From: Eukaryota sp. GEM-RC1
Lineage: Eukaryota
Length of the DNA stretch: 64,000 nt
Assembly (NCBI GenBank): GCA_040285855.1
Contig: JAUFOQ010000016.1
Location: 1,364,001 to 1,428,000, forward strand
Reading direction: 5' to 3'
The notes under the pieces were generated by a model. That model worked only from the letters and a program-made list of their open reading frames with translations. It did not search any database and was not told the origin of the DNA. Position 1 is the first letter of the stretch. Each line of letters begins with the position of its first letter. Positions 1,440 through 58,543 of the stretch are shown here, one piece after another. The position numbers and the translations under genes are program-made.

Positions 1440-1734
1440 GACTCTTGGCTATCTTGTTGTTTTGGATTGTGTGTATTTCTGAGTCTGCTACCGCCCAGAC
1501 TGATACTGATCGATTTGTTCACACAGTGAACTATTTTAATCTGTAATATTCACAAAGGAAATGATTCCGCATCTCATCATACAATGATTTTAGAAGTCAA
1601 TTTTATTGTTATTTACCACTGTGAATTTCATTCCAAATGCATAAGGGCATAACCCTTCACATTTTCATGAGATAACCCACAGTTGACAAAGTCCTCATTC
1701 GCAAAGTCTTTTAAGACGAGCTAACTTCATAGAT
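1440..1734 (-). ncRNA. Candidate Fanzor omega-RNA scaffold (boundaries uncertain)
   Basis: Directly 3' of the Fanzor ORF. Long imperfect hairpin at 1683->1618 (ACUGUGGGUU/AAUUCACAGU, UCAU/AUGA, AAAUGU/GCAUUU, AAGGG/CCCUU) whose G-U pairs form only on the minus strand. Further hairpins GUUCAC-ugu-GUGAAC (~1517-1531) and AGUCUG...CAGACU (~1482-1501). Confidence 0.35.
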
Positions 1735-4700
1735 TCAAGATTCCTGATCTTTCTGGTTTACGTGTGAGTCCTTGGGTACATCTTTCTTAGGCTTATTTGG
1801 ACAAGTTGCTCTGTTATGCCCAGGTTGAAAACATATACCACACTTGTTAGGACCTCTGACTTTTGTTAGAGGACGCTTTGCTTTACCCTTACCCTTACTC
1901 ACAGTCTTTTTCTTTTGGAATCTGATCTGTATTCCCGCCATCCACGACAGGTGTTGTTTGAGATTTTGGTCTCTCGAGGATGGCAGGTCTACCTTGACCT
2001 TGAATGGTTCCATTTACAATATTGTAAATATTGATAGCAGAATTGAAGTCTCTATTCCAGAGGACATGACATTTAGCACATTCAACTAAGCCCCATGGTG
2101 AGACTTTGTTGTTCTTCAATCTTTCTTTCGAAAATGTCAACTGGTCAGTCCATTCATCATCAAAGTTACGCTGCACAATATTGTCTAATTGATTGTGTTC
2201 CATAATTTCCTTTTTAATTCTTTCTCTTCCTTCTGTAACTTCTTCTTCCAATGAGGATCAGTGACTTTTATCCTTTCAGGATTGGAACAGATACCTTCGT
2301 CGTTTCTGGAAACACATGCAGAGCAACATTTGCTGGTCTTAAATTCATCAACTAGGAACACTTTTAATCCAAATTTTCTTAATAATTTCCGAATTGAAGC
2401 ACCTTTTACAGTAGATGCTTTACCTCTTCTTCGACGAAAAGCAGTGTCGTTCCAGTCTCCATACCCAACAACGACTTCATCTGGGTTTCCAAACTGTAGA
2501 GCAAATCTGTGAAGCATGTTTTTCTCACTTCGTTCCTTTCTTGAATACTGTGTGAGACGATTCCTCCTAAACCACTTTTCTTCGTAAATTCCTTCTGTAG
2601 TTCTTTGATCAGTAGTGGGTGATCGTAATAAAGAACAGGTAATTTCTTTACCAAGAACAAAAGCAGAATACTGAGTCAAATCACAAGATTTACTACCTGG
2701 CGAGTTAGAGCCCCATTGATCTAAAATTTGTTGCCCATTTATGTCAATGCGTCTGCCATCTGGAATGTGAATAAATTGGGTAGAGTATTGTTGTAACCGT
2801 TCAGATTCAGATAAACGGTGGAGATTATATCGTCTTATTTTCTTCTCCAGCTTCCTCTTCTTTCTCTTAGCTCTTTTTCTTTCCGTCCTTGTTTTTTTCT
2901 TTTCCATGGAGACTTTTTAATATCTGCCTTGCGCTCCCCAGCAGTGTATCTGAATACTTTCCAATCGTCACGATTTTTTAACTTGACAGTTGATGGTTTG
3001 TCAATAGTGGGTGCGTCTTTCCAATCCTTCAATTCCTTTTTCAATTTTTTCAAGCTTCCTTTTTTCTTTGATGATTTTGGAGAAATCTTTCTTCTTCTGA
3101 GATTGGCTGATGTATCGAAACCTTCGATGTTCTTTTCCTCCTCAGATTTTAAAGAAGCACAATACATCAAATCATGCTGATTAGGATCAATAGCAACAAT
3201 TCTTTTGGATTTCAAATTTAAGTTTTGAATTTCTGTGGAACTCAAAGAATCAATGTACCTTTCAGTAGCTGTGTAGTCAACTGCTTTCACCTTCTTATGA
3301 GGATTTCCTCTCCCATCAAGCAGATCTTTCCGCATCATCATTAAATTACAGCTAACTCCATCTGTAGAAATAGAACTGTATTTGAAGTCATGAGACAATG
3401 ACTTTGGAAGACACTTTGGTTTCAAAACTGAGTGCCAAATATCTTTTCGAACGTCATCAAAGCTACCTTTCATTTCTGATGCATAAACTTCTTTAAACCA
3501 TGTAGTATCCAATCTGATATGATTAGGAATCAGTGATTTTGTTAGAGGAAAAGGATTATTGGCAGTAACACCAGGACAAGAGTCCTCAACAAGACGTTTC
3601 AAAAACACTGCATGACTTAAGAATTTCAAAGGATCTACTTTTTCAGCATAATAGATTGTTTTCTCCATTTTACCTTCAAAAAAAGTAAACAAATAATTAA
3701 AAAATAGTAAACTCAGTCTAGAATTGGGATCAGGAAACACTTCAACATCTTGAAAATTAATTTTTGAAATTTCCCCATTAATGATCAACTGTCTGACTTC
3801 ATTAAGCTTTGTACACAACTCTTGTCGTAGATTCTTATCAGTAAGCTTGTTAAGTCTATCTTTTTCAGGGTAACCAAATTAAATACTTGAAAAACATATT
3901 CATGAAAGTGATCACTCATGTTAGTCTTGTAATTCGTTATAATTTCAGTAGCCATGTAATGCAATATACGAGATAAACGATGACTACTGGGAAACACAAT
4001 CCTATCAAGTCCAACAGATCGAGCAGCTATTTCTAAACGAGGAATATAATACATCAAGAAGTGTTGAGCAAACTGATTTTGAGTTGAGCCATCATTTGTG
4101 TTAGAAATTATGTTTGTTAACGATTCTTGCACAGTCTCAATATGATTCTGATTGTTTACAAGTTTGTTGTCCCTAATCGTCATCATAGACAACACTTGTT
4201 CCATTGATTTCAACGTAAAAAAATTCTTCCAGTCTGGCAATTCAATTTTGGTAGTTTGAATTTTAGTCCAAAGGTCAGGTTCACCACTCGCATCTTCAAT
4301 ATTTTCTAATTTAACAGGAGGAGCAGTATCATCGATAGACTCTGAATGTACATCTGTTTCTTCATCAGTTGACTCATCTGTATCAGAATTCATTTTTCCC
4401 TTAACAGTTACATTTGGAACAGTAGCAGGCAGTAACTTCTGAATGTAACCTATAATACCTGAATGGTGAAAATTATGAACAAAAAATGTTTCAAAAAGAG
4501 AGTACTACGGACTCTTACTTGGTGAGCTCTCTTAACACGAGATTCAATAAATTTAACCTTCGCTTTGGATACAACATTGTCCAGTCGTTTCTTAACCACT
4601 TTCATTGGTGACTTTGAACGTAATGTTTGCTTTTTGGGATCCAATAGGTCAGCCAACAAGTATTCAATCAGAGGTAATTGTTGAATTGAGTTCATCAACA

Positions 4701-7163
4701 ATAGCGGTCTTGTCGATTCCTTGGCCCAAAGTTCATTTACTTTCTCCAAATTTTTTACAAATTTCTTTTTAATCTTATCGACCTTCACTTTGGGATTGTC
4801 TGGAACTAAAACATTAATACTGTCAATTATGCCATGCAAGTTTTGGACATCATTGACCAATTGAACTTCATCAGGATCAGAGTCATGATTAAGTTCTTCC
4901 AAGCGTTTGACAGTTTCATTTTTAGAAAAATTATTCATTTCAAGAAAAATTTGAACAACATTTTCCAAAAAACGGCCACCAGTAAAGACATAAAAATTCT
5001 TCAGTACAGCATTCAAATCAAGACTAAAAAACGGACCAAAAGTTGTTTCCTTACACCATTTGTTGAACCAAAAGGGAATGTAGGGTTTAAATTCTGGAAC
5101 AGTAAACGTTGTATTGATTTTGAGGACTTGACAACGTGATACAAGAAAGGGAAATGTATCTAAGTGAAAGTCATAACTCACAAACAATCGTGGACAATGT
5201 TGAGTAATGAAGGAAATGAAGTTTTTAAGCATACTGGATTCACTATCTGAAATATGTAAAGTACACAAATCCAAGTTTGTAGTATCAAAATTGCCATGAG
5301 AAAATAAATGCTTTTCATTAAACTCATTGTGATCAATGATCTGGATGGAAATTGATACAATCGGATCAACAGAAGAATCACGTTTAACTTCTAATTGATC
5401 TTCAGCTTCACCTTCAACAGTTTCAATGTAATCATCATCTTCTTGAACAAGTTGAACATTTCTGCCAATAATTCTTTCTTTTTGGCAAAATCACTTTGAA
5501 CATGAATTAAACAAAAAGTTGGTAGATTGTTCCAAAGTAGAGGGGATTTAAGAAAGTCTTGAATTTGTATTTCTTCTTCTATAGGCTCAGTGTGTAGATT
5601 TACTTCCATTTTTTGGATTTCTTCTTGAATTGGCGATGGATACGACATAATGGAGGCCTGTGATTTTGGTGGTAGTTCAGATGGTGGTACTTCAGATGGT
5701 GATGGAGGCAATTCAGATGGTGGTACTTCAGATGATTCCAATGTGGACATACGGCGGTGAGTCTTTCGTATTGGAGTGTCACCAGTTGAAACAAGGGAGC
5801 TGGTAGTTCTAAATTTATTTCGTTGAATTAAAGGTGAACCTCGTGGTGATGGAATATCAGAAATTTTGGGCTTACTTTTTTTAGTGCTTAAACCAGTAGA
5901 TGCTTTAGTACTAGCAAGACGTGAACCTGTGAGAGGAATTGAAGTGGTTGGATGTTCTTTACCGGCAGGAGGTTGAATGGGTAACGATGGTACAATAGGA
6001 GCTACTGTGGTTTGACGTTGTTGTAGATAAAGTGTCCTTTGTTGAGACAATACATCCCGAATTTTTTCACGAAATATGTCTGCTTGAAGTTCATTGTTCA
6101 CTTGGACCAAATAAGTTTCCAAATACATCAGAGACGGAACATACGTGAGTCTTTTAAAAAGTTCAACATATTTTTGAATATACGCAATGACATAAACTCC
6201 ACAGTCGTTAGCAGACTGTGTTTTAGTCACAGGCACATAACGGAAAACATACCCCAATGGCACAAGTACTTCGGATAATATGTCGACAGCTGATTTTACC
6301 ATAGACTTACTCATATCTTCGCTAGTTAACATTGGATCAATGAAGATCCAAGAATTTTCACAACAGTCTATAATGGCTAAACCCCAATGAGAACCAGTGA
6401 CACCTTCTCTGGAATAATTAGCATTTCTAGTCATGGTATCACTAAGGGGAACAAAGAGGTATTTGGAGTTTATGATTTGATTTTTCTCAATTTTCGTCAA
6501 CAACCATTGATCTAGCGGGGCATCTGGTGAAACAATATATTGAAGCAATGTGGTCGGATGGATAAACATGCTTTCAAAGTCTAACTCTGCTTCTTGAAAT
6601 ATCACTTTACAGTACTCCACTATCGCTTCGTCATCAACCCATTGATGAGGATAAACTGAGTTTATGGCTTCTTGAGTTACGGGTCCTGGATTGGATTCAA
6701 TATCACCATCAGCGGTCAGGTCTTTTGGGAACGGAGGATGGGAAGGGATAACACATGAATAGAAGTAGAGTACATACAACAGCAGAGATGGAAGTGTTTT
6801 CACAACATAGAAAAAGCTATCCATATATCGACTCAACGGAGATAGAATCCAAGCAGGGGATTCCGCCTCATATTGGGTCAAATACAAACAACAAGGTGGC
6901 AGCATGACATCAACGGGAGAGGAGAAAAAGCTATCCATATATCGACTCAACGGAGATAGAATCCAAGCAGGGGATTCCGCCTCATATTGGGTCAAATACA
7001 AACAACAAGGTGGCAGCATGACATCAACGGGAGAGGAGAAAAAGCTATCCATATATCGACTCAACGGAGATAGAATCCAAGCAGGGGATTCCGCCTCATA
7101 TTGGGTCAAAAGAGGAGTCTTGTACGGAACAGAGTGTCTGTTAGAATGTAAAACAACCAACAT
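1735..7163 (-). CDS. Polyprotein: repeat leader / 2A / SENP8-Ulp1 protease / PolB-exonuclease-like domain / Fanzor1 nuclease / CCHC knuckle (reconstructed across 6 frameshifts, ~1,800 aa)
   Basis: Joins ORFs 5391-7163, 4450-5274, 3785-4393, 2835-3818, 2185-2907, 1895-2251 and 1735-2013. Five junctions are repaired by one extra base in an A/T run, the last by two. Fanzor1 motifs: ILHYMATEIITNY, FPLTKSLIPNHIRLDTT, ISTDGVSC, IVAIDPN (RuvC-I D), FRYT, GYGDW, VDEFKTSKCCSAC (E), CAKC..WNRDFNSAINI (RuvC-III D), GRPAIL. Protease: WVDDEAI, GSHWGL, FIDP, QSANDCGVY. Confidence 0.85.
6681..6725 (-). other. 2A (StopGo) ribosome-skipping peptide
   Basis: KDLTADGDIESNPG|P matches D[V/I]ExNPG|P, in frame, immediately before the protease domain. 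Confidence 0.9.
6809..7110. repeat. 114-bp coding tandem repeat, ~2.6 identical copies (38-aa unit)
   Basis: GAAAAAGCTATCCATATATCGACTC recurs at 6810, 6924 and 7038. Unit LTQYEAESPAWILSPLSRYMDSFFSSPVDVMLPPCCLY. Confidence 0.95.
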
Positions 7164-7458
7164 TTGTGGAGAGAGGAAAATGAAATGTTTCAGTCATCCC
7201 TGTAGTCTAGACTACAGTACAATTCTACTATCACTTGTAGTCAGTAGAGTGTCAAAACATCAAAACAACTCTTATGTTATACCATCATCCGTTACCATTA
7301 GTGATTACTTAAGACGTCTTTAAGACTGTCAATCGTATAACCAAACTCATTGACTTAGTTCTCTTCTGAATTCATTTGCTATAAAGCCATGTATAGTCGT
7401 AGACGAGAAGAAAATGAATTAATTCCAATAAGTAATGAAGTAATGAATGTAAATTCAC
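7164..7458. promoter_or_regulatory. Divergent intergenic region with palindromes
   Basis: Lies between head-to-head ORFs. Perfect 16-bp palindrome TGTAGTCTAGACTACA at 7201-7216 and AAGACGTCTT at 7311-7320. Confidence 0.35.
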
Positions 7459-8981
7459 ATGTCTGGAACGAAATCTGTAATAAAGTCTATACCAGAATTT
7501 CCCATGTCCTACTCAATCTTCAAACTCAGAACCACTTCTAAACAAGAAAGTCGTTCCCGTACCATCAAAACATATATGAAACTTGTTGTAAAGCTTGCTG
7601 ATAAGTATGCAGTTAACTTGTCACTTGTTCTTCTTCCTTATGGAACATACAATTCTTGGAGAACTAAATCTATCCACATAACGGAAGTCTCAACCTCTGA
7701 CTTACCAGATGATCTCAAAAAAGGTACCATGGATTTTTGCCTCAACTACAAATCAGCCGTTGCCATTGTGCTAGATGTTGATCTAGAAACTGTTCATCTC
7801 TTTCCTTTTGATGGTTCTTATGAGAAGCGTGACATATCTCTTCCACTTCCTTCAACAACTTCAACTCTAAATCATCTTAAGGATCTACTCAAAGACGTTA
7901 AACGAGTTACAATTGCTCCTCCTCCTCCTCCTCCTCAGTCTCAATCTCCTAATCTTTTACATGATTGTGACATTACTCGCATTGACGATACTCCATCTCA
8001 AGTCGTTTTTCCTTCACCAAAACGTCGTATTGATAACTTCGCAATCAATCATATTCATTCTATTTTCTCTGAACCATCTGAAATAGTTCCTGTTCCGGTC
8101 ATTGATAATGCTAATTTATCTAAACCTATGAAACGCAAAAAACAACGTAACCCGTTGATTCTTTATGTAGATTTAATCAGTGATCAGTTTTACATAAATT
8201 CAAAATTAAAATCTGGATTTTGTGATATTGAAAAAATGTTGACAAAGGATGATAGAGAAGGTAAAACACAACTCTTGTTGAGTTCTGAACTTGATTTCAT
8301 TGTGATGCTTGCATTCCAAAAAATTAAATCAAGTAGGTACAAGTTCCTGCAATCTCAAGAAACTCAACAGTTGGTAGGTGATCCAATATGCTATGCCTTA
8401 CATTCTGGTAAGGCTATTGTCGATACACTAAAATCAGGAAAAGAATTCTTGCCCCATTATGTTTGGTGAAAGAACATGTTCCTGGTGATGCAGGATCTGG
8501 TCATTGGATTCTTATTGAATTGTTTCTAAATGAAGCAAATGTTTTATTATTCAATATTTATGATTCTTTGGATTATTCATTAACCACTGAATTAATCGTT
8601 AATCCTTTTAGAACTGTTTATGGATGTGGGGAAACAAATCTGTTTGCAAGATTACCAGAGTATAAGGTGGACTACTATATACCTTTTGAACAGTCAACAT
8701 CGTCTCTTATCTGTGGATGGATTGTCTGTTTGAATGTTACTTTAATTTTACAAGGATTAATGGTTGATGCACGTCAGGAACAAAATCAGACAAAATTATA
8801 CACTAACAGATCAAGAAAAAATCTATGTCTTGTTATGTATGATCTACTTCAGAGTGTACAACCTGACTTGGTGACAGAACAAAATGTAATTGATTGTTCA
8901 AGAACAAAATTTGAAAACAAATCGTTAAAGACAAAAGACGAAAATGAAGTTTTAGGGAAAAAACAGGAAAACGAAGAATGA
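7459..8981 (+). CDS. Protein with C-terminal Ulp1/C48-like cysteine protease domain (one frameshift near 8440)
   Basis: Adding one A at GGAAAAGAATT gives GKRILAPLCLVKEH...SGHWILIEL...IYDSL...EQSTSSLICGW, the H-D-Q-C catalytic pattern. Confidence 0.7.
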
Positions 8982-9450: not shown

Positions 9451-12400
9451 TCAATTCAGGTGTTGGCAATCCTGAGGGTCCAAAGAAGTTTTTTTGCAAA
9501 TTTTGCTTTTGTCTTTATCACTGATAGAATCGTAAAAGATTACGATTTTTTGATTTTGTTCATACAATTTGGCAACAAGTTTGGCATCACTTGGTAGATC
9601 AAAGATTATACAAAGATCAGCCTGAACAGAATGGTTAACCGCTAATTGAGTAGTACTAATCATTATAACAGACTTATCATCCTTCTTGAATTGACTGAGA
9701 CTGTAATCCTTGGAACGTTTACTTTGTTTCCCGGTCAGTTCAACCACGGTAAAAGGAACTGACTGATCACGTCTGAGATTTTGATATAATTTCGGTGAAT
9801 TTACATCAGTTGTAATTAGCACCTTTTGCAGAGACTTGACAGAGACTTGACTTAACAAATGCTTGACATAGCTGATATTCTCATCCACAGTTGAGACACA
9901 AATGATGAATTGCAGTTTTGGTGATGTATCAACGAGGACAAAAGCTTTGTCTTCATTCTCAGAAATCTCAACGACTGATTCAGAAATAGATTGAGACGGT
10001 TCTTGAGTCAACTGTGTATGAAAAGCACGTAGTTCAAGACATCGTTGTTCAAAAATTTGATTAATTTCTTTTGCATCACAGTGACGAACATCACGAACTT
10101 CTAAAAATGTACCAGAAATACACAGCACAGATAAAGCTGAAAGAATAAAAAGTGTGCCATCATTTTTCAGAATGATAAAAGAATCCAAATCATTACAAAA
10201 CTCAATTTTTTGTAATTGAACAGCTAAATCACCAAATGAACAGTCAATTATAAACTGTACTTGTTTCTGTGGCAGTTTCAAACCGAAACCAATACAAAAC
10301 CCTAATTCAGTTATGTACATTATTGTGTCATAACGTTGTACATAGACTGCATCAATAATTCTGTCAACGTGGTGACATGTACAAAGATCCTTTACTTTTG
10401 TATCAATCAGCTGCTTTTCATACAAATCTAGCTTTCGGATGGTAAATGTACCAACAATTAATATCAAATTGTCATAACGTCTTAATTTTTTGAACTGTTC
10501 TCCGCGTTCAATTGTTAAATCATCTAAATCTAACAATATTGAAAGAGAATCCCATTCTAGGTCTTTTTGTCAGTTTCTGTAACTGGAAATAACCGACAAT
10601 ATACAATTCGATATACAAATGAAAGAATTGGATGTACCAACCATGTCAATAACATTGGGGTCACTGCGATTTGGTGCACATGGCAATGCTTTTCGACCAG
10701 CTTTTCCAGATGGCTTCTTGTAATGTAGAAAAAATTTGGGACCTATAGAAGCTACCAGTACAGCATATCCACCCAATTGGCCATGAAGAGCAAACATTGT
10801 TAATTGATGTTCAAAGGGTTTGCAGAATTCTTCAACTCTTCCCGAGCTACGTTTAAAAAATTTGAGGACTTTACCATTGTTGTAGAAAACAAAATTTTTG
10901 CCAACAAACAACACGACAGGAGTAGGATCGAACTCCGTCACAGCCTCAACCTCCGTCACATGCTCAACGACACTGTTGTTGTCTGCCAAATCTAATGTTC
11001 CAATGTGGATTTTGAACTCTTGTTCAAATACAACATAGAACAAAGAACCTGAATTATGTACAAAATTCAGAATTTTACAACTTTGTCCCAAATATGTCGC
11101 AGAATAAGTATTGACCTTACAATTGGTATTAGTCCAAGACAATAAATCACTAACACATGGTTCTTCAGTAGCTTCAACAATCATTTGTTCAGTACCTTCA
11201 GCAATTTCAGTACCTTCAGCAATCATTTGTTCAGTACCTTCAGCAATCATTTGTTCAGTACCTTCAGCAATTTCAGTACCTTCAGCAATCATTTGTTCAG
11301 TACGAACTGTAATTTCAGAATTCAAAATAGAATTTAGATCAACAGATAGTATCCCACAGATTGGACACGAAGGATTAAAACACATCAACATGTTGCTTTC
11401 ATCTCTCAATTGAAATTTCAAAAGTTGAAAATGATTATGTCTTCTTTCGACAAAATCCACAGCAACTGATTGATCCTTAAATCTACTCAAATCAATACAA
11501 GCAATTCTTTGATAAAAAGCGGATAAATCAACTGAAGAAACAATTCCTTGTTCAGTCAAATATACCAGAATGCGTAATCTGTTGATACATCCAAAAGTTG
11601 ATTTAATAAATGATTCTTGATAAGACCAGAACACATGCCAGAGACGTTTAACTTGAAATATTCCATTAAGATCTAGCTCGTGACTTAATAAATATAATTG
11701 AAGATAATTGTTGTCAGAACAGTGATCTGGTCTACCGATCTTGACAACTGGTTTTTCAAATTCTAATTCTGATTCTGAATTAATATTGAAGTTCATTAAC
11801 CATATGATGAACAAATTAGTTGTGCACGGGATAAATGATAATAATTGGGGCAGCTTGTCTCCAACAAAAATTCCATTGTGGTAACTTGCAGTATCACTAG
11901 TAGGAGCTAGAACAGTAGGAAGAGGAAACAGTGTCTTGTTACAGTTGACTGTATAAAATTTCTCATAGTCAAGACGATTGTACTGAATTAAATCAGTACA
12001 TGGTTTTACAGCAACTTCAAATTGTAGCATAATAGTTTTTTTCTCACAACATTCAATGTGATCCCAATGATACAATTGACTATACATTTCCCAAAAAGAT
12101 TTGTCTTTAATAAATTCTGTTGCCTTATTCCATACAATCGTACGACCACTAAAGAATCTATTGTGGTCAAAGTACAATTTGATTTTGAACTTCTTAATTG
12201 AACTTACATTTCCACTACACTTGTGAATGAACAATTGATCTTGATACTCATCAGAAAATTCTGATGTAAATATTGCAGTGGAACTTTCATTGTCTTGTAA
12301 GTAGATACCAAAATTCGGAGTCTTACCCTGTTTTAACAACCCTTTAACAACAAACTGTTTACCAAACAACGTTTCAATAAATTTGTCAAAAGATTCTTTG

Positions 12401-19779: not shown

Positions 19780-20340
19780 CAGTATCAATGACTGATTCAG
19801 TAATAGATTGAGACGGTTCTTGAGTCAACTGGGTATGTAAAGCATTGAGTTCAAGATACTTCGTGAACGAGAAGTTGTAAATAAATCGTGGACATTAAGT
19901 CAAGTTTGTTTTGGACCATGATGATGTTTTTATATTTGACGGTGAAATCAGTGGAACCATTTATGTTCTAGAGTTGATTCCTGGTGTCATAACGTGGACA
20001 CCACAATCGGTGGTGACATTGAACTGAATCCACGTGGTGAAATCTAGCTTGTATGATAAAAATGAATCAACAATCCTTAGATTTTAAACAAACACAATAC
20101 ATCATATCATATTGATTAGGATCAATCGCAACAATTCTCTTAGATTCATACCTTTGTTTAAATACATATCAGAACACTTTGACCGAATCACCAATTTTTT
20201 TAAACAACATTTCCACACAATTGGCCATGAAGAGGAAACATTGTTTAATATACCTTCATACAAAACTATGCAATAATAATTAGTCTGTATTGTCGAAAAC
20301 AATTTTAGACCAGTAGTTTAATCTAGTTCCATTGAATTGA
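19780..20340 (-). pseudogene. Decayed paralogous fragments of the DEAH gene's 3' region
   Basis: 19788-19858 closely matches 9970-10040 (GACTGATTCAG.AATAGATTGAGACGGTTCTTGAGTCAACTG). ~20218-20246 matches ~10775-10802 (CAATTGGCCATGAAGAG.AAACATTGTT). Confidence 0.6.
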
Positions 20341-23503: not shown

Positions 23504-23959
23504 AGAACACAAATCGGGGTGTTCGACTTCTACGATGAACATCAGCAGTGGAGGGAGGATGAGGATTACCTTGGATTTAGTGAAACAGAAGCAGAAGGTA
23601 CCTTGTCTTCAGATAGAATGGCATCAACGAGGGCTAGGAGAGAGAACTCATGTTTGATTTGTAAGATCAAGGGAGTGTCTTTAAAAGACTCGGATATGAG
23701 TTAGAGTGCTCGAAAGTAGTCCAATGACACGATACATTGCTCTATTTCATCAAGATCGATCCCAACACCAACATCACCTTTTACAAAGACATATAATTTG
23801 ACATATGAGACGATAGAAAGCTCATCATGGTAGAATAAGCTTCTAAGAATTATGTACGACCAGCATTTTCCATACAGTGGAGATAGATATATAAATTATA
23901 ATGAAAGGAAAGTTTCCCTGCACAATCTGCATCTTAAACATCACCACTTCACACACTCA

Positions 23960-26409
23960 ATGTCCATTATCAACACACTTACAGACGAACAGGCTCAGGT
24001 CTTCCAAGCTATTACTCATGCTAGACCTTCTAAGCGTCGAAATTTCTTCATTACTGGTGGTGCCGGATCGGGCAAGTCTTACCTACTGTACTGTCTTAAA
24101 CAGTGGTGGTCTAATGCGGGTTCCAAGCTAATGAGACCCAATGGCCATGTCTTTTTTACTGCTACTACTGGTGTTGCTTCCACTGTCTTTGGTGGTCAAA
24201 CCCTACACTCTCTCTTTGGTTATAATTTTATCCGTAATGAAAAACCAATATCTGATGTCATTCGCTCTATGCCTTCAAGTGTTAAGTCTGTTTTACGAAC
24301 TATTAGTGCTCGAAATTCAATGCTTGTTATTGATGAAATTTCAATGTTGACTGCTGAACTATTCAACAGAGCCTCGGATATATTTAAAGATTTACTGAAG
24401 TCTCAGTTACCATTTGGTGGACTTCAAGTTGTAATTTTTGGAGATTTTTTGCAACTTGCACCAATTGTAAAGTCTGACTCAAACACACGTACTGTTCTTC
24501 AACTTTCAGACTTTACGTTTTCATCACAGTCTTGGAAGGACTTGAATTTAAATTTTATTGAATTATCTGGAAGTATCCGACAACAAGGTGATGTCAATTT
24601 TTATAATTTTTTGAATGAAATACGTCTCGGACTTTTTGATGACTATATGAAACATATTTTATTGAAACATAAGTCATTAGCCAAAAATATTGAAAGTCCA
24701 ACCAAATTATTTGCTAGAAACAAGGATGTCGCCGACGAAAATTTAAAGCAATTTGAATTATTATGTGAACAAGGGAATGAAAATGTTGAATTTCATTCCC
24801 TCGATAAGTTCAATGAACCCTTAATTAAATCAGAAATTGTAAAGAGTTGGGCATTTGGTAAGCCTAATGAGGAACAAATGGAAAAGGCTGTTGATTTAAA
24901 TTTAAAAAAATTATCAAGTAGGCTAAACGATTTTGCCGAACAAAAATTTCACTGTGTTGTCGGAGGTTTGGTAATGTTTACCCAAAACAAACCAGATCTG
25001 GGCCTAGTAAATGGGTCAAAAGGCAAAATTATTGATTTTTCGGAAAGTTCACATTTCATTAATGTAAGATTCGGGAGGGACGAAGAACCAATCAAAATTA
25101 TTCCGACTAAATTTGAAATTGAGGTGTTGAATGAGAAGAAAAAGCCTGTAATTATAGCATCCCGATTGCAATATCCTCTTCGTCCTTGTTGGGCAATAAC
25201 AGTCCATAGATCTCAGGGACTAACAATTGAAGGAATTGAAGTATCATTAAATTTTTGGGAATATGCCCAATTGTACGTTACATTGAGTCGAGTGAAGAAC
25301 TGGAACTCAATTCAAATTTTAGATATTTCTTCAAGATTTCCCATACCAAGAATTGATCTTTATCAGTGGTATTATTCCACTTTTCACCCCTGTCGACCGG
25401 TTACAAAACCTCTTTATCCTTTGCCAATAGAAGATGAAAGAATTGTTAGAAATTGGCCTTCTGTGTTGAAAACTTTTGATGAATTTTCGTCCAATATTAA
25501 TTCTATTGTTGGTGAAAGTATGGAAACTGTTGATGTTCTTGATCCAGTCAATGAAGAAATTGAGGAAGATTTGGTGGAAGATGTTCCAAAAATTGAAAAT
25601 TTGAATACCACTTCTAATTCAGTTTTAGAATTATTCGATAATGAAGTTGTTGTCTCTGGAAGTGATAGTGGAGATGATGAAACTGATGATGATGACGATG
25701 CGTCGTCTAGTATGAATGATTTTGTTGTGAATGATGATGAAGATGAGTGTCTCAATAATCAAAGTGTAAGTGCCATCAATTCTGATTTAATTTTTAACAA
25801 ACATGTGCCAAAACTGAAAAAACAACAATTACTACTTTGCCTAAATTGAGACCAAATCTATTGTCTCGAAATACTCTCAAACCAAATTCGAATTTACCTA
25901 GTTTGAAATTATCAAAAAAAGTTACAGATCATGTGGACACTGAATCTGTCAACAGATTACCAAATTCTCTTGGTATTCAGACAGACCTTGAAAACAACTT
26001 GAACAATACTCGTACTATTTCCATGCAGACAGAAACAAAGGTTCTTACAATTGTCCACGATATTGTACCACTGCATTGGAACCAAAGTGGTACAACATCA
26101 GACTGTCAATCACATATGAGTTTGAAACTTCAGTTGTTAAAAGATTTAAATTTATTGATGGCGGAAATTTTGAGTTTTCATTTGAATGATAGGGACAAGT
26201 ACTTTAATGTGTTGTCGTTGACCAATACTTTTGTTATGTCGATATTAGATTTAAATGATGAAGTGATGTGTGATGAACATTGTTTGGGAATATTGGATGA
26301 ATTTCGTGAAGTGATGTGTGAGTATTGTTGTGGGATTGGATATAAGGAGTCGTTTTCGTTGGCTGTGATGTTTGCGAGGGTGATGGGGGGATATAGTAGT
26401 GTTAGTTAA
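23960..26409 (+). CDS. PIF1: PIF1-family SF1B DNA helicase with acidic tract and C-terminal extension (frameshift near 25820)
   Basis: LTDEQ, FITGGAGSGKS, TATTGVA, GGQTLHS, IDEISM, PFGGLQVVIFGDFLQLAPI, RQQGD, LVNGSKG, QYPL..WAITVHRSQGLT, QLYVTLSR. An A6 run joins ORF 25837-26409. Confidence 0.9.
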
Positions 26410-26532
26410 GTTTGATAAACTGAGGTTGTATATTTTATTGGTTGTGTTTAACGACATTATATATAGAAGAAAAAATTATGAGCAACAACAATTCAATACA
26501 CATAGGACACGTTGATTGAGATTGATTCTCAC

Positions 26533-26902
26533 CAAATGTTGTAGTTACAAATGTTGTAGTTACAAATGTTGTATCACCAAATGTTGTCATTACAAATGTT
26601 GTCATTACAAATGTTGTCATTACAAATGTTGTAGTTACAAATGTTGTATCACCAAATGTTGTCATTACAAATGTTGTCATTACAAATGTTGTAGTTACAA
26701 ATGTTGTAGTTACAAATGTTGTAGTTACAAATGTTGTATCACCAAATGTTGTAGTTACAAATGTTGTATCACCAAATGTTGTCATTACAAATGTTGTCAT
26801 TACAAATGTTGTCATTACAAATGTTGTAGTTACAAATGTTGTAGTTACAAATGTTGTATCACCAAATGTTGTATCACCAAATGTTGTCATTACAAATGTT
26901 GT
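26533..26902. repeat. 15-bp minisatellite, 25 cores; probable subterminal repeat of the element
   Basis: Invariant CAAATGTTGT plus one of three 5-mers (AGTTA, CATTA, ATCAC) at exact 15-bp period. Confidence 0.95.
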
Positions 26903-26949
26903 ACATGTAGTTATAACTTGGTGTCTTTGTGTCTTCTGATGAATGAAGC

Positions 26950-27492
26950 TTCATGGACTTGATGTCGTTGACCTTAGTCTCATTCCAGATAGCATCTGAT
27001 AGAATTGAAAAATGCAGTCAAAAATGACTGAAGACACAGCAGTGTATTACACTATCATAGTTGTAGCAAACCAGAAGAGTTGTAGCGAACCTTAGTGTTT
27101 TCCTTTGGAGGATAAGATGTCAATGTGATGTATGTGTAGTAGGATGGTTGTACAACGTTGAGTTTATTCATGAACTGGTTATTTACCAGTGTGTTTTAGT
27201 CATACCCAACATTTCCGAAACCAAAATTTAGTAAAATATTCATAATTTATAACTCATTCAGCAATTGCTGTTTGTCATACTTTGAGAAGATATACCAAAA
27301 CAGTTCTGAATCAGTCCAAATCAAATCATTGTTTTTGATCGGTTGTAAGTTCGTTTCCGGATTGTGTGAGCTGACGTTTGATTGGTACCAAGCAAACACC
27401 CTTAATTCCATATCCTTAAACGCATGCCTACGCTTAGTTTGTGGAGTTCTATAGACATCTGTCGATGAATGGAACAGTTTCAGATTCCTCAT
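26950..27492 (-). mobile_element. Decayed pogo/Tigger-like transposase N-terminus
   Basis: KRRHAFKDMELRVFAWY resembles the CENP-B-type HTH of pogo transposases; short and disrupted. Confidence 0.35.
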
Positions 27493-29095: not shown

Positions 29096-29536
29096 AGTAA
29101 CTTTGTTAGAATTAGTGATTAAATATCGTTTTGTCTACTTTTGTTTATCGATAATGTTGTGATCAACCGCTATAAAACTTAATTCATACGCTTCATTAGC
29201 ATAGCATTTAACAGAACAACACAGTACACACTCCAAAAAAATATGAAAAAATCGGATTTTGTTTAATTTATCAGAATAATAAATTGTATTTCTCTCACTT
29301 GGTGGACAAACTTTACAAGTTGAATCAGGGATTGGAAAACATATATACTTGTTGTCGACCAACATTTTTTTTGATTTTTTTTGGATACACTTAATATATT
29401 GTAAATGTAAAAGGCCAAACCACTAAAATTTGATATCATTAAACCAACACCCGTCGCCAGGGATGTTCAAAAATAATTGCATTCTGCAATACAGTATTGC
29501 AATAATGTATGGCAACAGTATGGAGTATTGCAATTA

Positions 29537-29676
29537 CACTGGTCACAACAATTAGTCTCAGTGAGATACTAGTAGTCTCAGTTCAGAATTAGTCTCACTG
29601 AGACTAATTTATGAATAGACCATTTTGAAACTAGGTTATGAATTAGTTCCACTGAGACTAAATATTGTGACCAGTG
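29537..29676. mobile_element. 140-bp Tc1/mariner-type MITE
   Basis: TIR CACTGGTCACAACAATTAGTCTCAGTG / CACTGAGACTAAATATTGTGACCAGTG, flanked by TA on both sides. Confidence 0.85.
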
Positions 29677-29689
29677 TATTTGTTCTAAG

Positions 29690-35442: not shown

Positions 35443-36886
35443 CATAGTTTAAGTTGGGAAATACACTTTTTTTATATTTTTCTGTATTTTTTAAATTCGG
35501 TTTTATGTGTTGTTTTAGTATTTTTCTGTAGTCTTTGTATTTTTCCCAGAAACTTCATTTTGACTTTTCAAGTGGTCAAATGCCTCGAATATGCATGTTT
35601 CAGTTATCAGAATAACTAAACAACCTAGAAATCAGTAACATTGAGCTATGAATCTACTTAACAAACACAACATTCATATTATTCTGTGAAACACATTTTT
35701 TATGTACATTACCTTATAAGTAGTTGTACTACAGCAATTGGTGTATTTAGTGTGGATTTTAATTAGTGTGGTCCACACTAATTCTCATTTTCTTGCTATT
35801 TTTTAGTGTTAAGTTTGGACTCAATTAGTGTGGATTTTATTCTTTCAATAATATCAATATCTGAAAATCAGAACAAATCTATATGAAAGCACCAGTCCTA
35901 AACCGATAAACGCTTTTTCTTTTCAACATTCCCTAACATGATACTAGGCTCTGAAATCCTGGCTGCTTTTGATCGATAAAGAGTCAATTTAATAGAGTGC
36001 TATCTGCCTAACAATAATACTCATTTACTACAACTCGAAGATTCTTTTGTCATTTCAAAAATCAAGGCAAAATGGTTTAAAGAATGGAACACCAAGAATA
36101 GACAATTGACTAACAACCTTGATTTTTCTAGATCGGGAAGATTTCAAATCCTGGAAAACAATTCTTTCTTGAATTAGCTGAATAATGTATCATTGACGTC
36201 AATGCAGAAGCAGACATATAATGGTAATTTACATGCTCTCAAAGCCATGATTATCTGTGGTTTGAGCTTGAACACAATCGTTCGTTGGGAAATTGAACAG
36301 TTGAAATCAGAGCTTCAAGAAACTAACAAAAGAATCCCTGATCAATTCAATAACGCAGTTAAGGAGTTGTTGTAATAGTGAAATAGAATTTTCAGATTAC
36401 ATGTAGTAGTAACTTAAAAACACTGTTGTAAGATCTTCTATAGTTTTGCATTGTTTCACGAATGTACACATCACCAACTACAATTATAATAACATCTTTT
36501 TAATTCACACTAATTCTAATTTCTACGAGCTGAAAAAAGTAATGAAAATTAGTATGGTCCACACCAATTATACCAATTGCTATAATCAATTAACATTGTT
36601 TTATAATTGAGACGTGATCCAAAAACGCAATCAACGACACCAAATGTGAGATGATAAAAGTTCCAGATAAACTTTGCAATTTGGTAGACACTCAACGTGA
36701 GTGGTAAAACAGAATGTAGAATCTTATCATGTCTCAGGATTGAGGTCGAATCGAAATTGACATTGATTGGTGATATTAAGCGGTAAATCGAATATTTCGA
36801 CAAATAAAAATTACAAAATACAATTATGCTGGAAATTTGCATTTTTGTGCATTTTATTTTCTGAGGTGGTGTATTTCCCAACTATG
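35443..36886. mobile_element. hAT-like non-autonomous element (family A), interrupted by a pogo element
   Basis: TIR CATAGTT(TAAGTT)GGGAAATACAC / GTGTATTTCCCAACTATG; 8-bp flanks ATTTGAAG / AGTTGAAG. Both arms align with the copy at 45640-46187. Confidence 0.75.
35732..36582 (+). mobile_element. Internally deleted pogo/mariner element
   Basis: TA-flanked TIR CAGCAATTGGTGTATTTAGTGTGGA / TCCACACCAATTATACCAATTGCTA. Residual DDE_1 motif YLPNNNTHLLQLED at ~36001-36045. Confidence 0.75.
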
Positions 36887-37745
36887 AGTTGAAGCATGAT
36901 TCAATCATGAATCTTGAACGAAATGAGGGTATTGCATAAAATTATTAAAATTTTTGATAATACGTTCAGACACTTGTGTTAACATCTAAGTTACTGAATA
37001 CGACGCATTTATGCTCGCACTCTGTTTGTGCGCACTGACTGTGAGTCCGGTCTGGGTGCAATACAAAAGATAAATACTATCATACTAATTGTACATGTAG
37101 TTTTAAGTTTGTACATCAAATACAAGATTTCGTTGTGTTTCAGTTTTTTCTCGATTTTAATGTGGAAATCGACTGAATGAGTTTTATAGAATAGACAGAT
37201 TCTTCCTCTAAACTCAATTGACAGCAACTTCTATCACGATATACGTCACTCATCGAACAATACTAACGGAAAACCTCGTCATTACAAATATGTGTTGGTT
37301 TTAAATACGCCATTACAATACCATCTCGCTACTCGAGGATCTAGTCCGTTTAGAGGGAGTAGTAGTGGATTGGATAAAATTAGACTTGGTAGTCTTGCTA
37401 CTTGATCTAGCTCTGGCTTTGAGCTTGATATGAGTGTGGTTGGTAAATTGATTTTTATTATACTGTACATCTTTTTTTCCACGTGTGTTTTCATTAATGA
37501 CACCTAAAGGCAATAATAATTATGGGCCTCATCCTAGTATGATGGTGCATGTCAGCAAAAGTGAGCCCAGCAAAGGGTAAACGAATACCTACGTGGCTTT
37601 TTCAAGGTAAAAGAGAAAACATCCAATCTAGAACTAAGCGAAAAAGGGTTTCTGAAGAAGTGTGCTATGGGACTCTCCCTGTGGCTTTCGAAAGTCATTG
37701 ATGGCCAGAATTGATGATGGAGCATTTAGCGATTTAAGGCATACA

Positions 37746-38080
37746 TGTAGTTGGGAAATACCCACCTCCGAAAATCAATCACAAAAGTACACAATAATAC
37801 AAATTTGTAACATAATAACATTTTGTACCTTTTTTTGGAGAAGTATTAGAAGTGGAATTGAGTCTTAATGTCAGCCATGGTCAGCTCTAATCCAATCTGA
37901 TGATTCACAATTAGCAAAGTTTAGCTTAAACTGTCATCATCTCAAATTTGGTGTCGTAGTTGCGTATTTTGATCATATTCGACACAAAAACAATATCAAT
38001 TAATCAGACCATCTGTTTGATGGCAAAGGAACTAGGCATAAAAAATTGGGTTTCTTATACGATGACTATGATTGTTGTGT
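37746..38080. mobile_element. Truncated copy of hAT-like family A
   Basis: Begins TAGTTGGGAAATAC; body aligns with 45650-46000 (CATCATCTCAAAT.TGGTGTCGT...TTGCGTATTTTGATC). Confidence 0.7.
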
Positions 38081-45358: not shown

Positions 45359-46592
45359 CATACCTGTTGATAACAAAAACAATGTGATAACATGTGTTTA
45401 GCGATAACATGTTATAACAAGCATGAAATATCTTGTGATAACATTTGGTCTTTATATGGTAAAATTAAACAAAATTAATTACAACCAATAACTACATGCA
45501 GTACAGTACATTCGGGTTTGTATTTAGTGTAGGATTACTCCAAGATGTAGGTTGCTAGTTAACGCAAAATCATCATTCACAACTGGAAAGAGACTGTTGA
45601 CCTCCACACAACACAAAAAGTATTTCTCAATGATAAAAACGTTAAAAATGGACAAAAATACATCAGAATACAAATTTGTAATAATAATATTTTGTAACTT
45701 TCATTTGTTCAAACATTAAGATTACCGCTTAATATCACCAAGCAATGTCAACTTCGATTAGCTCTCAATCCTGAGACATGATTAGATTCTACATTCTGAT
45801 TTACCAATAACATTGATTGTTTACCATTTGCAAAGTGGATCTGGAACTTTCATCATCTCAAATCTGGTGTCGTTGATTGCGTATTTTGATCTTGTGTCAA
45901 ATATAAACCAATCCCAATTAATTAGTCCATCTGTTTGACGACCAAATCAAAGGTACTGGCCATAAAATGAGTTTCACAGAAGATGACTATGAATGTTGTG
46001 TTTGTTGAGTAGATTCATAGCTTAATGTTACTGATTTATGGGTTTACTTGTTATTATGAAACATGACTATTCGAGGCATATGACCACTTGAATAGATAAA
46101 ATGAGGTTTCTGGAAAAATAGCAAAACAACCTTTAAACCGAATTTAAAAATACAGAAAAATACAACAAAGTGTATTTCCCAACTATGTCTCAAAACCTGA
46201 ACATTAAAAGCTGAAGACGAAGACAGAAACCGAAGGAAAATCTGATGACGCTGTTGTTGTCTATCAGGATTCGGAGGGATTGGTTGAAGAGATTGATTTT
46301 GAATGGCCAATTGATCACAGATCGCCCCTATGCGCAGAACATTAGAGAAAAACAGAATACAGGCTTCAATGACCACCACTGATGAATTGCTAATAGTAGT
46401 TTTGTTTTTGTGTGTAGTTGTGGGTGAGTTTTGACATCGTCAAAGTGCTTAATAGCCGTATTAGTATTTCATAAACGGTTATCACAAATACCCTTTGTTA
46501 TAACACGTGATAGTATGTTATCACATTTTGTTATTGTGATTATGTGATAACATGTGATCACAAACGGTAGTTGGTTGTTATCAACAAGTATG
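45359..46592. mobile_element. hAT-like element (family C), middle layer
   Basis: TIR CATACCTGTTGATAACAA / TTGTTATCAACAAGTATG with perfect 8-bp TSD TTCAAAAC; GTGATAAC subterminal motifs. Confidence 0.85.
45640..46187. mobile_element. hAT-like family A copy, inner layer (one end lost)
   Basis: Ends GTGTATTTCCCAACTATG; reverse complement aligns with 35455-35700 plus 36590-36860. Confidence 0.75.
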
Positions 46593-48560: not shown

Positions 48561-49014
48561 CAACAATGTCATGGGTCGCCTTCAGAATTGAAACAATTCA
48601 CAAGTACCTAAGGAATATCCTTCCCCAACGTTAAAGAACATCCCAGACTGTCTTTGACTCTTTACAATTAGTGACATAGAGAGAATGACAAAACAAGTTG
48701 TTTGACTAATTGCTATTACGTTATTGGGGTCGTTGGATCTCAGTATTCCTAGAATTTCTCGAGGAATAGAATTAACTCCGCTTTCGTAGAAACAACAACC
48801 AACGGCAACAATATAGTATAAACAATTGGTGAACAAATATTGCGCATTCTGATTAACAAACAAGCTGAAAAGAAGGCGTATCAAGAAGTCAGAAATCAGA
48901 ACAGGTGAACAAGTACTGTCCAATGCGGAGAAAAGGGTGAGGACTGTTTCAACAACCAATTACACTTCCACTTTGGTTACAAACAAATGCTCCCACAGTT
49001 CTTTGAATTGCTCA

Positions 49015-52000
49015 ATGTGCGAGTTCTTCTCTGGAGCGTTGTGGGTTCCATCTACTTGTTATTCGCTCTATGTTACTTGGGCCGCTTCTTCGGCCTCTTA
49101 TCCTCTTTTTGCTGAACTTTATCCTTCCCAAAACCCACTTTTTCTCTCTAAGATCACTAAGATTGGGTTTACTAAGTGGCTGTTTGAAATGTTCTGATAT
49201 CCATATAATATCAAAGTCCTTCAAATTACGCATTGGTGTTCTAAATGTCCGATTCTCCCCATTCCCTACTAAATCAGCTCCCCGTCTGTCTGTATCTATT
49301 CGTGGCTTTCAAATGACTGTATTTGCCAATGCAAAACGCTCCGAAGACCTTCGCGAAATCATTAAATCACGTCTCAAAGCTAAGATTGATCGTCTCAATC
49401 AACAACGTCAAGGCAAAGACTTCACTCTGGATTCACGTGACTTTGCCTCCCCAATCTCTTTCAGCGATGTCCTCTCCTTCCTTGATCTACCTATCCCTAC
49501 CTTTTCTCAAACACCTTCCCTTCCAAAGTCTTCCCTTCCATTCTTCTATCGTCTTGTTGCTCAAACCTCCATCAAGATCCACCACGGAACCCTTCTCATC
49601 GGTAATAATCGACTTCCCAATGTAATGATTGGTTCATTTGCTTCTGTTACTGGTGTCCACGAGGCTGTCTCCTGCTCCAACTCCATTGATCCCTACAGAA
49701 CAATCACTAAACTCACCCTCCTCCAAGTTTCTTTCAAGACAGCTCAGAACCAGGACTACTCTCCGGCCCCTCCTCCTCCCCACTCTCATTCCTCTTCATC
49801 TCTCTCTTCCTTCTCTGCTGGTACTGGTGACTACTCTCTAGAAACTGATGCTCTAATGAGACTAGGTGCCTTTCTCTACGACCACGATCCCTCCCTTCAA
49901 CAATGTGTTGACTCTTTCACTTCCTCTCTTCTTCAACCTCAGGACGACTTCTTCACTCGTCAGGCTGAGTATTGGAAGAAGATTGACCAAACTGCCACCA
50001 CTGAAACAATATTCGAAACGGAATCCATGGTTGTAGTCTACTATTATGATGCGATTGACCCTGATTATAAACCTGAACCACTTGATGACGAGGAAACGTC
50101 GGATATGACGTCATTGATTGAGTCAAGTGCTGCATACGGTGTGGAAGTTCGATTTACCTCAAAAGTAAAACTTCGATATGGTCCATGGACAGAACGTCTT
50201 CGACAAGTTTCCCAACGTTTCTTTTACCCTTTCCAATACGATACTCGTCCTCTAGTTGACCTCAACGATCCTCTGACTGAACGTCTCTATCTTTTCATGG
50301 TTGCCTCTGTTAAATTCGATGCTCAGTGTTCAGTTGTTGTTCCCTTTAGACGAATGCTCAACAGCGTACAGCGTCTTTCTGGTGATAATCCCCACTTAGA
50401 TTCCCTTCCTTTAAGTGGATGTATGTCGGTTAACATTGGATCTGGAAGTTCAATTGATGTGCTTCAGCCTTGGTATGATTTGGAAGATGCAGGGATGATT
50501 AGTAGTATTGATTGTGGACTTCGGAACGTGACTGTCACGTTTCATGACGTGGCAAATGGATATGGCTCAAAAATCCCACTGCTTCAATCAAATCTGATGG
50601 ATATCAAGGTCGGAATGGCTTACCCTAGACAGTGGAACGGAGTTTACAAGACTCTAGTTGACGTATCCTCTCCAAATGCCAAAATCAACTACTTTTCTGA
50701 TCTTTTAGACGTTTCTCAAGACTTAGCCGCTGACTTCAGCTCAGGAGCTCCTCTGTGGAACCTGTCTAACTACTTTCCCACTGAGTATAACATTAACTTT
50801 AGGTTCAAGGAGTGTACCACGACTTTGAATGCTTCTTATAAGAACATTCTCAATACAAGGCTCCCTGATTTAATGCATACTAAGGCAGTTCTTAAATCAT
50901 CAAATTTGACTGGCTCTGTCACGTCACCTATGACTATCTTTAAACCTCCCTTTATTACACATTCAATTTCTCTTTCCAGCGACTCCAGTGTTTTCTCAAT
51001 TGTCTATCCCAATTGTTCTCCAATGGCAATGTTCTCAAAGACTTCTTCTTCAGACATTGCTCTGGGAAGTCTGTCTGTTGATGGTTATTACAAGGGTCAC
51101 TATGAGATCTTGAGGGACAATGTTGACCAGTTTGTGATGAATGTGTCTCTAGAAGGAGTTGATGGAACAGTATTTGGTCCTGAGATATACATTGGAAAGC
51201 AGATCCTGGCTAACTACTTTGGTTGGGATGCTTGTCCGATTACTTTAGAAGAGTTTGGTGAGTACAACTTCCAGAATAAGCTAAGTGAAGACCGATGGAA
51301 TAGGAAAACTAGATGGGGTGATGGTTCTGTCAAACTGTTCAACTCCTTTGAGTCCGCTGTAAGTCTTGGTCTCCGTCACTCTCGTATCTCTGTTCCTTGT
51401 GATGCCCTTGGATCTAGACAAGTTGTAATCGGACTCCCTGAGCTTTCCTTTAACACCCATAACTTAGATGGACTTTACACTTCAGCAGTGAAAGCTCCCC
51501 TAGTGACAGTGTTCAACCAGAACCTTGCTGGTCTTGATTCTGGTACCCCTGACCTGGCAATATCTAATCTTTCTGTCTCTCTTACTGGTTACTACACTCC
51601 TTCCCCAGCGATTGAGTGTTATTTCTATCAAATGAGTATTGGGGTTGAAGCCGTTACTGGGGAGAGTTCTCTATCATTTTTGATGGATCTGTCTGATATG
51701 GCAGAGCAATCATCTAAGATTATGAAGTTGCCCTTCTTGAACGATCCTTCTGGAAAAGCTGAAGTTCCCGATTTCTATAATAATTTAAAAATGCCCTTAA
51801 GTCTGACTATTGTCAATATTCAATCTGTAATGGTGTCAATCTCTCTAACCTCCACTTCCCTCCTCTCTTTAACTTTGGCTGATGGAGTCCGATACTACTC
51901 TGAAGCTGCTCATCGTTTCAATAGGTCATCTGTCTCTACTGTTCAAGTTCCAGACTTCGCTGTAAAGATGCTGGTCCCAGTCAATCAATCACGTGATCAT

Positions 52001-58000: not shown

Positions 58001-58543
58001 TCAACGTCAAATCGACCTCCTTCTAGTTAAGAATGAACTGTCTAAGTTAACTATCAGAAACTCCCATTCTGATGACGTTTCTGTTAGATTATCCAATCCT
58101 CATGTTAAGTTCTTGGTTAGAATTCCAGGAACGGAGGTAGCCTTTTGTCACAAGAAATGGAACAATGTCAAGAAATTATTGGTGAAATTGATAGTAAGTT
58201 TGATGGTCCTTTCTTAATAGCTTTTGATAAGACCAGATATGATTATTTAATTTCTACAATGAAGACTTTCATTGCACAACTGCCTGTTTCATCCAGCACT
58301 TCGACAGCCGTTGTTCCCTCTGCTGCCTCTAACTTGAAATACTCTTTTGGATTGTCGTTCAATCCAGCAATCCAGTTTCTAGGCAATCACAAGATTCCTT
58401 TTGGTAGTTTCCTCTCTCAGTTTACTAATTCTGAGCCCAAGGACCTTGTTCCTGAAATTATCCACCAGCAAGTAATTTCTTTGATTGATATGATTGTTGA
58501 TGGTTCAGCTTCTTTGGTTTATACTTTAGATACAATTTTGTAA
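49015..58543 (+). CDS. BLTP1: Bridge-like lipid transfer protein 1 (KIAA1109/Csf1/Tweek), ~3,100 aa across several frame breaks
   Basis: GTLLIGNNRLP, VYYYD, LRYGPWTERLRQVSQRFFYP, YPRQWN, DLAADFSSGAP, NYFG match BLTP1/Csf1 N-terminal motifs. Beta-strand-rich same-strand ORFs tile 9.5 kb without real gaps. Confidence 0.8.

Follow-up and report, generated by a model that had tools for sequence, protein, structure and literature searches.

A candidate Fanzor1 family with a 2A signal, a PolB-type exonuclease domain and an optional C48 protease in Eukaryota sp. GEM-RC1

A stretch of 64,000 nucleotides (nt) of Eukaryota sp. GEM-RC1 (the window; assembly GCA_040285855.1, contig JAUFOQ010000016.1, positions 1,364,001 to 1,428,000 of the forward strand) contains seven overlapping open reading frames (ORFs) at 7163-1735 on the minus strand. 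Read with an X at each of six breaks they give 1,805 amino acids (aa), of which 1,645 would be left after a predicted 2A skip, in the order repeat leader, 2A, C48 protease, linker, PolB-type exonuclease, Fanzor1 and CCHC knuckle (Table 1). Pfam detected Peptidase_C48 (PF02902) in the first ORF (E=1.2e-5, above the cut-off) and DNA_pol_B_exo1 (PF03104) in the second (E=3.8e-7), together with weak matches to Cas12f1-like_TNB in the fifth and sixth and to a zinc knuckle in the seventh. An earlier note on this DNA had merged the seven ORFs into one frame of ~1,800 codons encoding a Fanzor1 RNA-guided nuclease behind a 2A and a protease. Sibling and paralogous proteins support such a frame (1,805 codons), and the motifs named there (2A, H-D-C, IDPN, VDE, NRD and both CxxC) were all found at the positions claimed. 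The single long ORF, the Fanzor1, the 2A and the C48 triad of that architecture stood, but not the protease as the main partner. The locus is probably, to judge from these comparisons, one copy of a multi-copy Fanzor1 family, with an ORF split by assembly indels, a leader shed by the 2A and a chain of ~1,645 aa made of protease, dead exonuclease and Fanzor1. The single-chain architecture very probably holds for the family and, with somewhat less certainty, quite probably for the window copy.

The Fanzor1 identity was upheld with sequences from outside the family. A profile of 92 such Fanzors matches five consecutive ORFs (2 to 6) in order, at 12-65, 101-175, 183-447, 428-597 and 594-651 of its 691 positions, and the paralogue P0009 matches the three solved Fanzor1 proteins SpuFz1 (8GKH, E=2.8e-14), GtFz1 (9CER, E=5e-11) and PpFz1 (9CF0, E=3e-10), which a profile of the family plus its relatives matches at E of 1e-75 or better. 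As the first of the outside matches (12-65, E=3e-4) falls within the exonuclease ORF, the exonuclease-Fanzor junction is present in the raw sequence and needs no repair. The RuvC acids are the Asp of IDPN (3188), the Glu of VDE (2346) and the Asp of NRD (2050), and both CxxC are present. The pattern given for Fanzor1 in PMC3627910, D-X(125,275)-[TS][TS]-xx-C4 finger-X(5,50)-RD, appears here as IDPN, TSKCCSAC, ECAKC and NRD in order, with an Asp-to-TS spacing of 282, slightly above the published range. The RuvC-II Glu is shifted to a place before the zinc finger (VDEFKTS aligns with SpuFz1), the RuvC-I motif is DPN rather than DPG, and the TDG of the WED domain is found as STDG in the ORF at 2835-3878. 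NCBIfam profiles gave weak matches only. In an AlphaFold model of the relative P0067 (residues 268-1443, predicted template modelling score 0.66) the Fanzor part is mostly confident. The knuckle of the tail (zf-CCHC_2, E=0.0014, below the cut-off) shares its frame with NRD in P0024 and P0085; P0072 and P0078 likewise end in a knuckle tail, and P0067 has no knuckle.

The 2A lies at KDLTADGDIESNPG/P, with a predicted skip (slash) between 6684 and 6683 after a leader of 160 codons. It is a canonical 2A: DLTADG-DIESNPGP fits the upstream class DLTxDG of PMC12846837 as well as the core (D/G/C/N)(V/I)ExNPGP given there; skipping is predicted. A 2A is present in 22 family proteins, those of a second species included, behind leaders of 42-336 aa with several unrelated repeat types. 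A motif scan of the six frames of the window gave two 2A motifs, this being one. There is also a second cassette of repeat leader and 2A (RDLSVDGDIELNPGP at ~16511) at 17144-15187 (-), in which an A5G frame change (~16345) is followed by a 386-aa ORF with no Pfam match, so that this layout serves other genes too. Besides, a 15-nt tandem array of 24 copies (26435-26978) has a minus frame starting HQKTQRHQVIT like the leader of the sibling P0028.

The gene family is multi-copy. The first ORF clusters at 90% with NCBI proteins that carry the label Eukaryota sp. GEM-RC1 (an unclassified eukaryote), and these siblings, with which the window copy shares 92-96% identity, were taken to be copies of a single family, their source being the same species or one very close to it. 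When 1.84 billion representatives were searched with P0009 there were 1,110 matches, of which the best 150 were used, and the second of them was P0067. This protein (1,473 aa) and P0213 (1,491 aa) are unbroken, belong to Eukaryota sp. TZLM3-RCL, where they represent clusters of 4 and 6, and show the order leader, 2A (DGDVEANPGP), Ser/Pro linker, exonuclease and Fanzor1, without C48 and without knuckle. Because these intact ORFs of a second species hold the 2A and the exonuclease-Fanzor1 and no protease, we take these parts as the conserved core, and by sequence the constant fusion partner of Fanzor1 is the exonuclease. Among the matches listed, the family was found only under the labels GEM-RC1 and TZLM3-RCL, plus unlabelled fragments. 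In a quick tree of 84 rows (127 columns, midpoint root) one branch separated the nine family rows from the others, with a value of 98 in the Shimodaira-Hasegawa-like approximate likelihood ratio test (SH-aLRT).

The same fusion, which the earlier note did not know from any described Fanzor, was not found elsewhere. Exonuclease, C48 or 2A appeared in none of 111 outside Fanzor loci (ordinary loci of metagenome and viral contigs, 27-44% identity, from the alignment A5 scans) and in none of 122 outside representatives, using family profiles that very distant domains could escape. The median lengths of these outside proteins were 662 aa (loci) and 667 aa (representatives) with a maximum of 1,033, and neither P0044 scanned against metagenomes nor P0067 against viruses gave a locus. 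A published natural fusion of Fanzor with Ulp1, protease, exonuclease or 2A was not found either in literature searches whose hits were mostly judged from the listing, although supplementary Fanzor tables could list long members. Ulp1, DEDDy exonuclease and 2A each have precedents on mobile elements; it is their joining to Fanzor1 that was not found in the literature.

The exonuclease domain matches the exonucleases of Pol delta and archaeal PolB (family profile against PolB structures, E=2e-10). The homology of this segment, previously called PolB-exonuclease-like, therefore stands, with the correction that the catalytic acids of this copy are gone. Alignment with motif-intact relatives indicates that the window's subfamily has lost the acids of ExoI (D-x-E), ExoII (D) and ExoIII (Y-x3-D), whereas P0067 and P0213 keep DVET, GYNxxxFD and YCxND, and P0187 has DFET and FD. 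Unlike the proofreading domain of family-B polymerases, with which it shares the sequence match, the exonuclease is not accompanied by a polymerase domain and is joined directly to the first Fanzor strand.

The protease, on the other hand, is a swappable cargo with 0, 1 or 2 copies per family protein. Twelve of the 22 proteins with 2A (the window copy included) carry the same C48, eight a different C48 and two none, and in seven of those eight it is followed by another C48-like copy whose Cys is replaced by Ser. N-terminal modules have been recombined between subfamilies, P0053 and P0061 combining the tandem protease with the window-type exonuclease. The emphasis on the protease had to be given up, as the intact relatives of the second species are without it and sister subfamilies swap it or have it in tandem. 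In the window copy the His-Asp-Cys triad is intact, and the best solved match is SENP8 (2bkq, E=2.1e-4), to which HW, D and DCG align; QSANDC is kept in 10 of the 11 other 2A-bearing copies of the subfamily. From the H-D-Q-C originally proposed, H-D-C is supported by Pfam and by the SENP8 alignment and the assignment of the Gln is uncertain, because it stands five and not six residues before the Cys (TQSANDC). The oxyanion Gln of Ulp1 and SENP1 is six residues before the Cys, and SENP8 has Gln at five and six before. Two queries to the ESM Atlas returned no usable match. A divergent two-frame gene at 7453-8981 (+) has a C48-like HW...D...C spacing, and no search supports it as C48. Its part at 8412-8981, considered as a second C48, is not supported as one, with BLASTP at E=0.22 and no match in Pfam, the Protein Data Bank (PDB) or the family profile; a strong profile score was discounted because the query sat in the alignment, which made it circular.

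Table 1. Features of the Fanzor1 element in the window
Feature	Positions	Strand	Basis or remark
Leader, 160 codons, with 114-nt tandem repeats at 6809-7110	6684..7163	-	shedding by 2A skip predicted
2A/StopGo, DLTADG-DIESNPG/P	6681..6722	-	core and upstream class as in PMC12846837
C48 Ulp1/SENP8-like protease; His 6389, Asp 6338, Cys 6203	6040..6680	-	PF02902 E=1.2e-5
Linker, Ser/Pro/Thr-rich, basic stretches, without Gly-Gly	5530..6039	-	translation
PolB-type (DEDDy) exonuclease and helical connector; break ~5460 to ~5478	4640..5520	-	PF03104 E=3.8e-7
Fanzor1: WED/REC with TDG, RuvC, C4 zinc finger; breaks ~4483, 3863 to 3866, ~2900, 2213	1950..4635	-	outside-family profile
Basic C-terminal tail, CCHC knuckle 1842-1801, break ~1912 to ~1915, stop 1737-1735	1735..1949	-	zf-CCHC_2
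Predicted candidate scaffold for an omega-RNA: long hairpin, 45-120 nt beyond the stop	1612..1690	-	z=-4.7

The six breaks had been attributed to bases missing in A/T runs. This was right for five of them, each with one base missing, and not for the last (~1912), which has one base extra in comparison with the siblings. Three breaks lie in A5G, one in T6 and one in A7. As a control for indels we used a Csf1/BLTP1-like host gene at 49007-58543 (+), which is also split, into seven ORFs, with five frame changes in 9.5 kb, four of them -1; it has zero A or T runs of six or more versus ~10 expected from base composition, a crude expectation, and some of its ORF junctions could be introns. The breaks were then tallied among 212 proteins, considering those close to the window sequence on the given side. 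At ~5460, 12 close proteins read through, one breaks likewise and two are uninformative. Reading through was also found at ~4483 in four (P0021 continues 13 residues), at 3863 in P0112, at 2213 in P0024 and P0085, and at ~1912 in both covering records. Since siblings read through these sites, five of the breaks have a recorded open allele, and at the sixth (~2900) the frame is open in paralogues that span it, including P0009, P0002, P0074 and P0079. An intron at 4509-4450 (GT...AG) was ruled out by the conserved residues that siblings and paralogues encode across it.

Several observations weigh against an intact single chain in a mobile element. At ~4483 six close records break likewise, two more stop just before and two gene models skip the break; four of five close siblings are also broken at 3863, none of the close siblings extends over ~2900, and 2213 is broken in three sequences (four records) and open in two. 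The extra base at ~1912 may be genuine, and some of the sibling records (P0027, P0041, P0053) are gene predictions that pass over a break. C48 and RuvC were not found together in one chain in any family record. In favour of a single chain, 2A, C48, exonuclease and the N-terminal part of Fanzor do stand together in P0044 and P0020. The longest chains are P0044, which reaches from the 2A as far as the REC region of Fanzor, and P0009, which covers the linker through RuvC-II and the first CxxC. In the AlphaFold model the exonuclease part is of low confidence (per-residue score, pLDDT, mostly <50, with a shallow alignment). Finally, transposase, terminal inverted repeat and target duplication were not found within the window (best repeat score 13, chance level), so mobility rests on copy number.

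It is unlikely, but the alternative that most deserves weighing, that the family architecture is real and the window copy is a decayed pseudogene in which some breaks are true homopolymer-slippage mutations. Breaks are denser in the element (six in 5.4 kb, 1.1/kb) than in the host gene (five in 9.5 kb, 0.5/kb), the ~1912 break is of opposite sign and absent from both siblings covering it, and family fragments are found elsewhere in the window (20073-20146). However, there are zero in-frame stops within the seven pieces, the RuvC, zinc and protease residues are all retained, identity to the siblings is 92-96%, and long A/T runs are commoner in the element than in the host gene. Still more improbable is that the A5G sites 3863 and 2213 are genuine programmed -1 frameshifts limiting the full-length nuclease. 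That both breaks are common to most close siblings, that the element already has one recoding signal and that the second 2A cassette also shifts frame at A5G would fit such a device, but 12 siblings read through 5460, which has an identical A5G context, and at the two sites the frame is kept by P0112, P0024 and P0085, by paralogues and by the second species. G_AAA_AAG is, moreover, not known as a canonical slippery heptamer, which also counts against it.

The protease could instead sever its own link to the chain, in the manner of same-clan processing proteases of viruses, and act separately from the nuclease, a possibility that the earlier note had raised and that we consider improbable too, to about the same degree. 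The long low-complexity linker, the polyprotein strategy and the exchangeable protease module are in line with it. Proteases of the C48 clan usually need Gly-Gly, and because the linker has none self-processing becomes less likely; the closest solved match is the isopeptidase SENP8, and the tandem variants hold their second, Cys-to-Ser copy in the same chain. An assembly-split copy of a single-chain family is thus the reading that we keep.

Behind the stop, the hairpin (1690-1612) has the lowest z-score of 30 windows of 100 nt; the next-lowest (2020-1921, z=-3.7) lies within the coding tail, and the whole 281-nt stretch reaches only -1.8. Rfam gave no match at the gathering score and two sub-threshold snoRNA matches. 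The omega-RNA of SpuFz1, as reported in PMC10432273, sits between the stop and the right end, so the position of the hairpin fits an omega-RNA, the element ends not having been found in the window, and from its predicted folding it is a candidate scaffold.

Near the element there are a USP/UCH deubiquitinase-like ORF at 18418-17318 (-) (E=5e-11), DEAH/DEAD helicase ORFs at 14924-9451 (-) and a PIF1 helicase at 23834-25849 (+) (E=2e-32). Together they may represent the cargo of larger mobile elements or of other ones, and Pfam on the window showed no Rep or transposase around them. A patchwork of short fragments at 19785-20245 matches, with 88-90% identity, the RuvC-I region of the Fanzor (3139-3211) as well as the genes at 9968-10039 and 10760-10801. 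A non-coding repeat at 35452-38080 and 45652-46184, with diverged inverted and direct copies (75-84%), is perhaps a non-autonomous element. A 33-nt inverted repeat at 29531-29682, its arms 91% complementary and separated by 86 nt, resembles a miniature inverted-repeat transposable element, and neighbouring stretches recur near 62400-62815.

In the mechanism that we propose a single mRNA would be translated and the 2A would free the protein from its variable, repeat-rich leader, giving it a fixed N-terminus. The Fanzor1 would bind RNA from the hairpin region 3' of the stop and cut element-free alleles, and repair after the cut would keep or copy the element as with TnpB; cutting by bacterial TnpB favours element retention or copying according to PMC10690162. 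The exonuclease would be the older partner, captured from a family-B polymerase and originally trimming 3' ends at the break; in the window copy, catalytically dead, it probably remains as a DNA-binding or structural module. The C48 would be optional cargo stripping NEDD8 or SUMO from its own protein or from repair or chromatin factors near the cut, similar to the role proposed in PMC2836005 for the Ulp1 domains on Ginger1 and Mutator transposases. Such a local isopeptidase role is conceivable, if somewhat less probable than its absence, and RNA-guided deneddylation by the window protein is put forward as a hypothesis. From the domain content, it is likely that the family protein brings extra enzyme activities to its predicted cut sites.

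Comparison with known systems helps to place the family. It shares with Fanzor1 the split RuvC D-E-D, the Glu just before the zinc finger, the C4 finger, the TDG and GDW motifs, the DPN of SpuFz1 and a candidate structured RNA behind the stop, and adds 2A, exonuclease, optional C48 and knuckle; terminal repeats were not found, and its proteins have 1,470-1,800 aa versus the ~800 aa reached by the Fanzor1s described in PMC10711439. The Ulp1/OTU transposases treated in PMC2836005 (Ginger1, Mutator, Helitron) also fuse a ubiquitin-like isopeptidase to a mobile-element DNA enzyme, but here the partner is an RNA-guided nuclease and the protease, nearest to SENP8, is N-terminal behind a 2A. A 2A-like sequence in the ORF is shared with the non-long-terminal-repeat retrotransposons L1Tc, Ingi, CR1, L2 and Rex1 (as listed in PMC3708506), yet the product here is a Fanzor1, with no reverse transcriptase or APE domain in Pfam. 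DEDDy exonuclease is also transposon cargo in the Terminons of PMC6431247. An exonuclease tethered to an RNA-guided nuclease exists in T5E-SpuFz1 (PMC13434818), which is engineered, has a 5' exonuclease and, in the data given there, lowered SpuFz1 editing, whereas the family fusion is natural and of 3'-5' type.

The Fanzors known so far are compact nucleases that stand alone, with ~600-800 aa. The family indicates that eukaryotic Fanzor1 tolerates, and in two species keeps, N-terminal cargo of 600-850 aa, and it extends 2A recoding to an element that has no reverse transcriptase. A broader and rather doubtful view is that the family is a natural eukaryotic lineage of RNA-guided effectors with several enzymes, in which Fanzor1 acts as a programmable chassis behind a 2A; into it would be plugged a 3'-5' exonuclease, to process the cut made by the element, and a NEDD8/SUMO protease, to change ubiquitin-like marks at a guide-chosen site and so steer host repair. 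The unbroken proteins of the second species provide a natural exonuclease-Fanzor open to direct test, and the protease-bearing subfamilies tie an RNA-guided nuclease to host ubiquitin-like signalling. Both bear on what Fanzors do for their elements in eukaryotes, in particular on the way in which host repair receives the break, and on the choice of fusion sites on Fanzor1 for editing.

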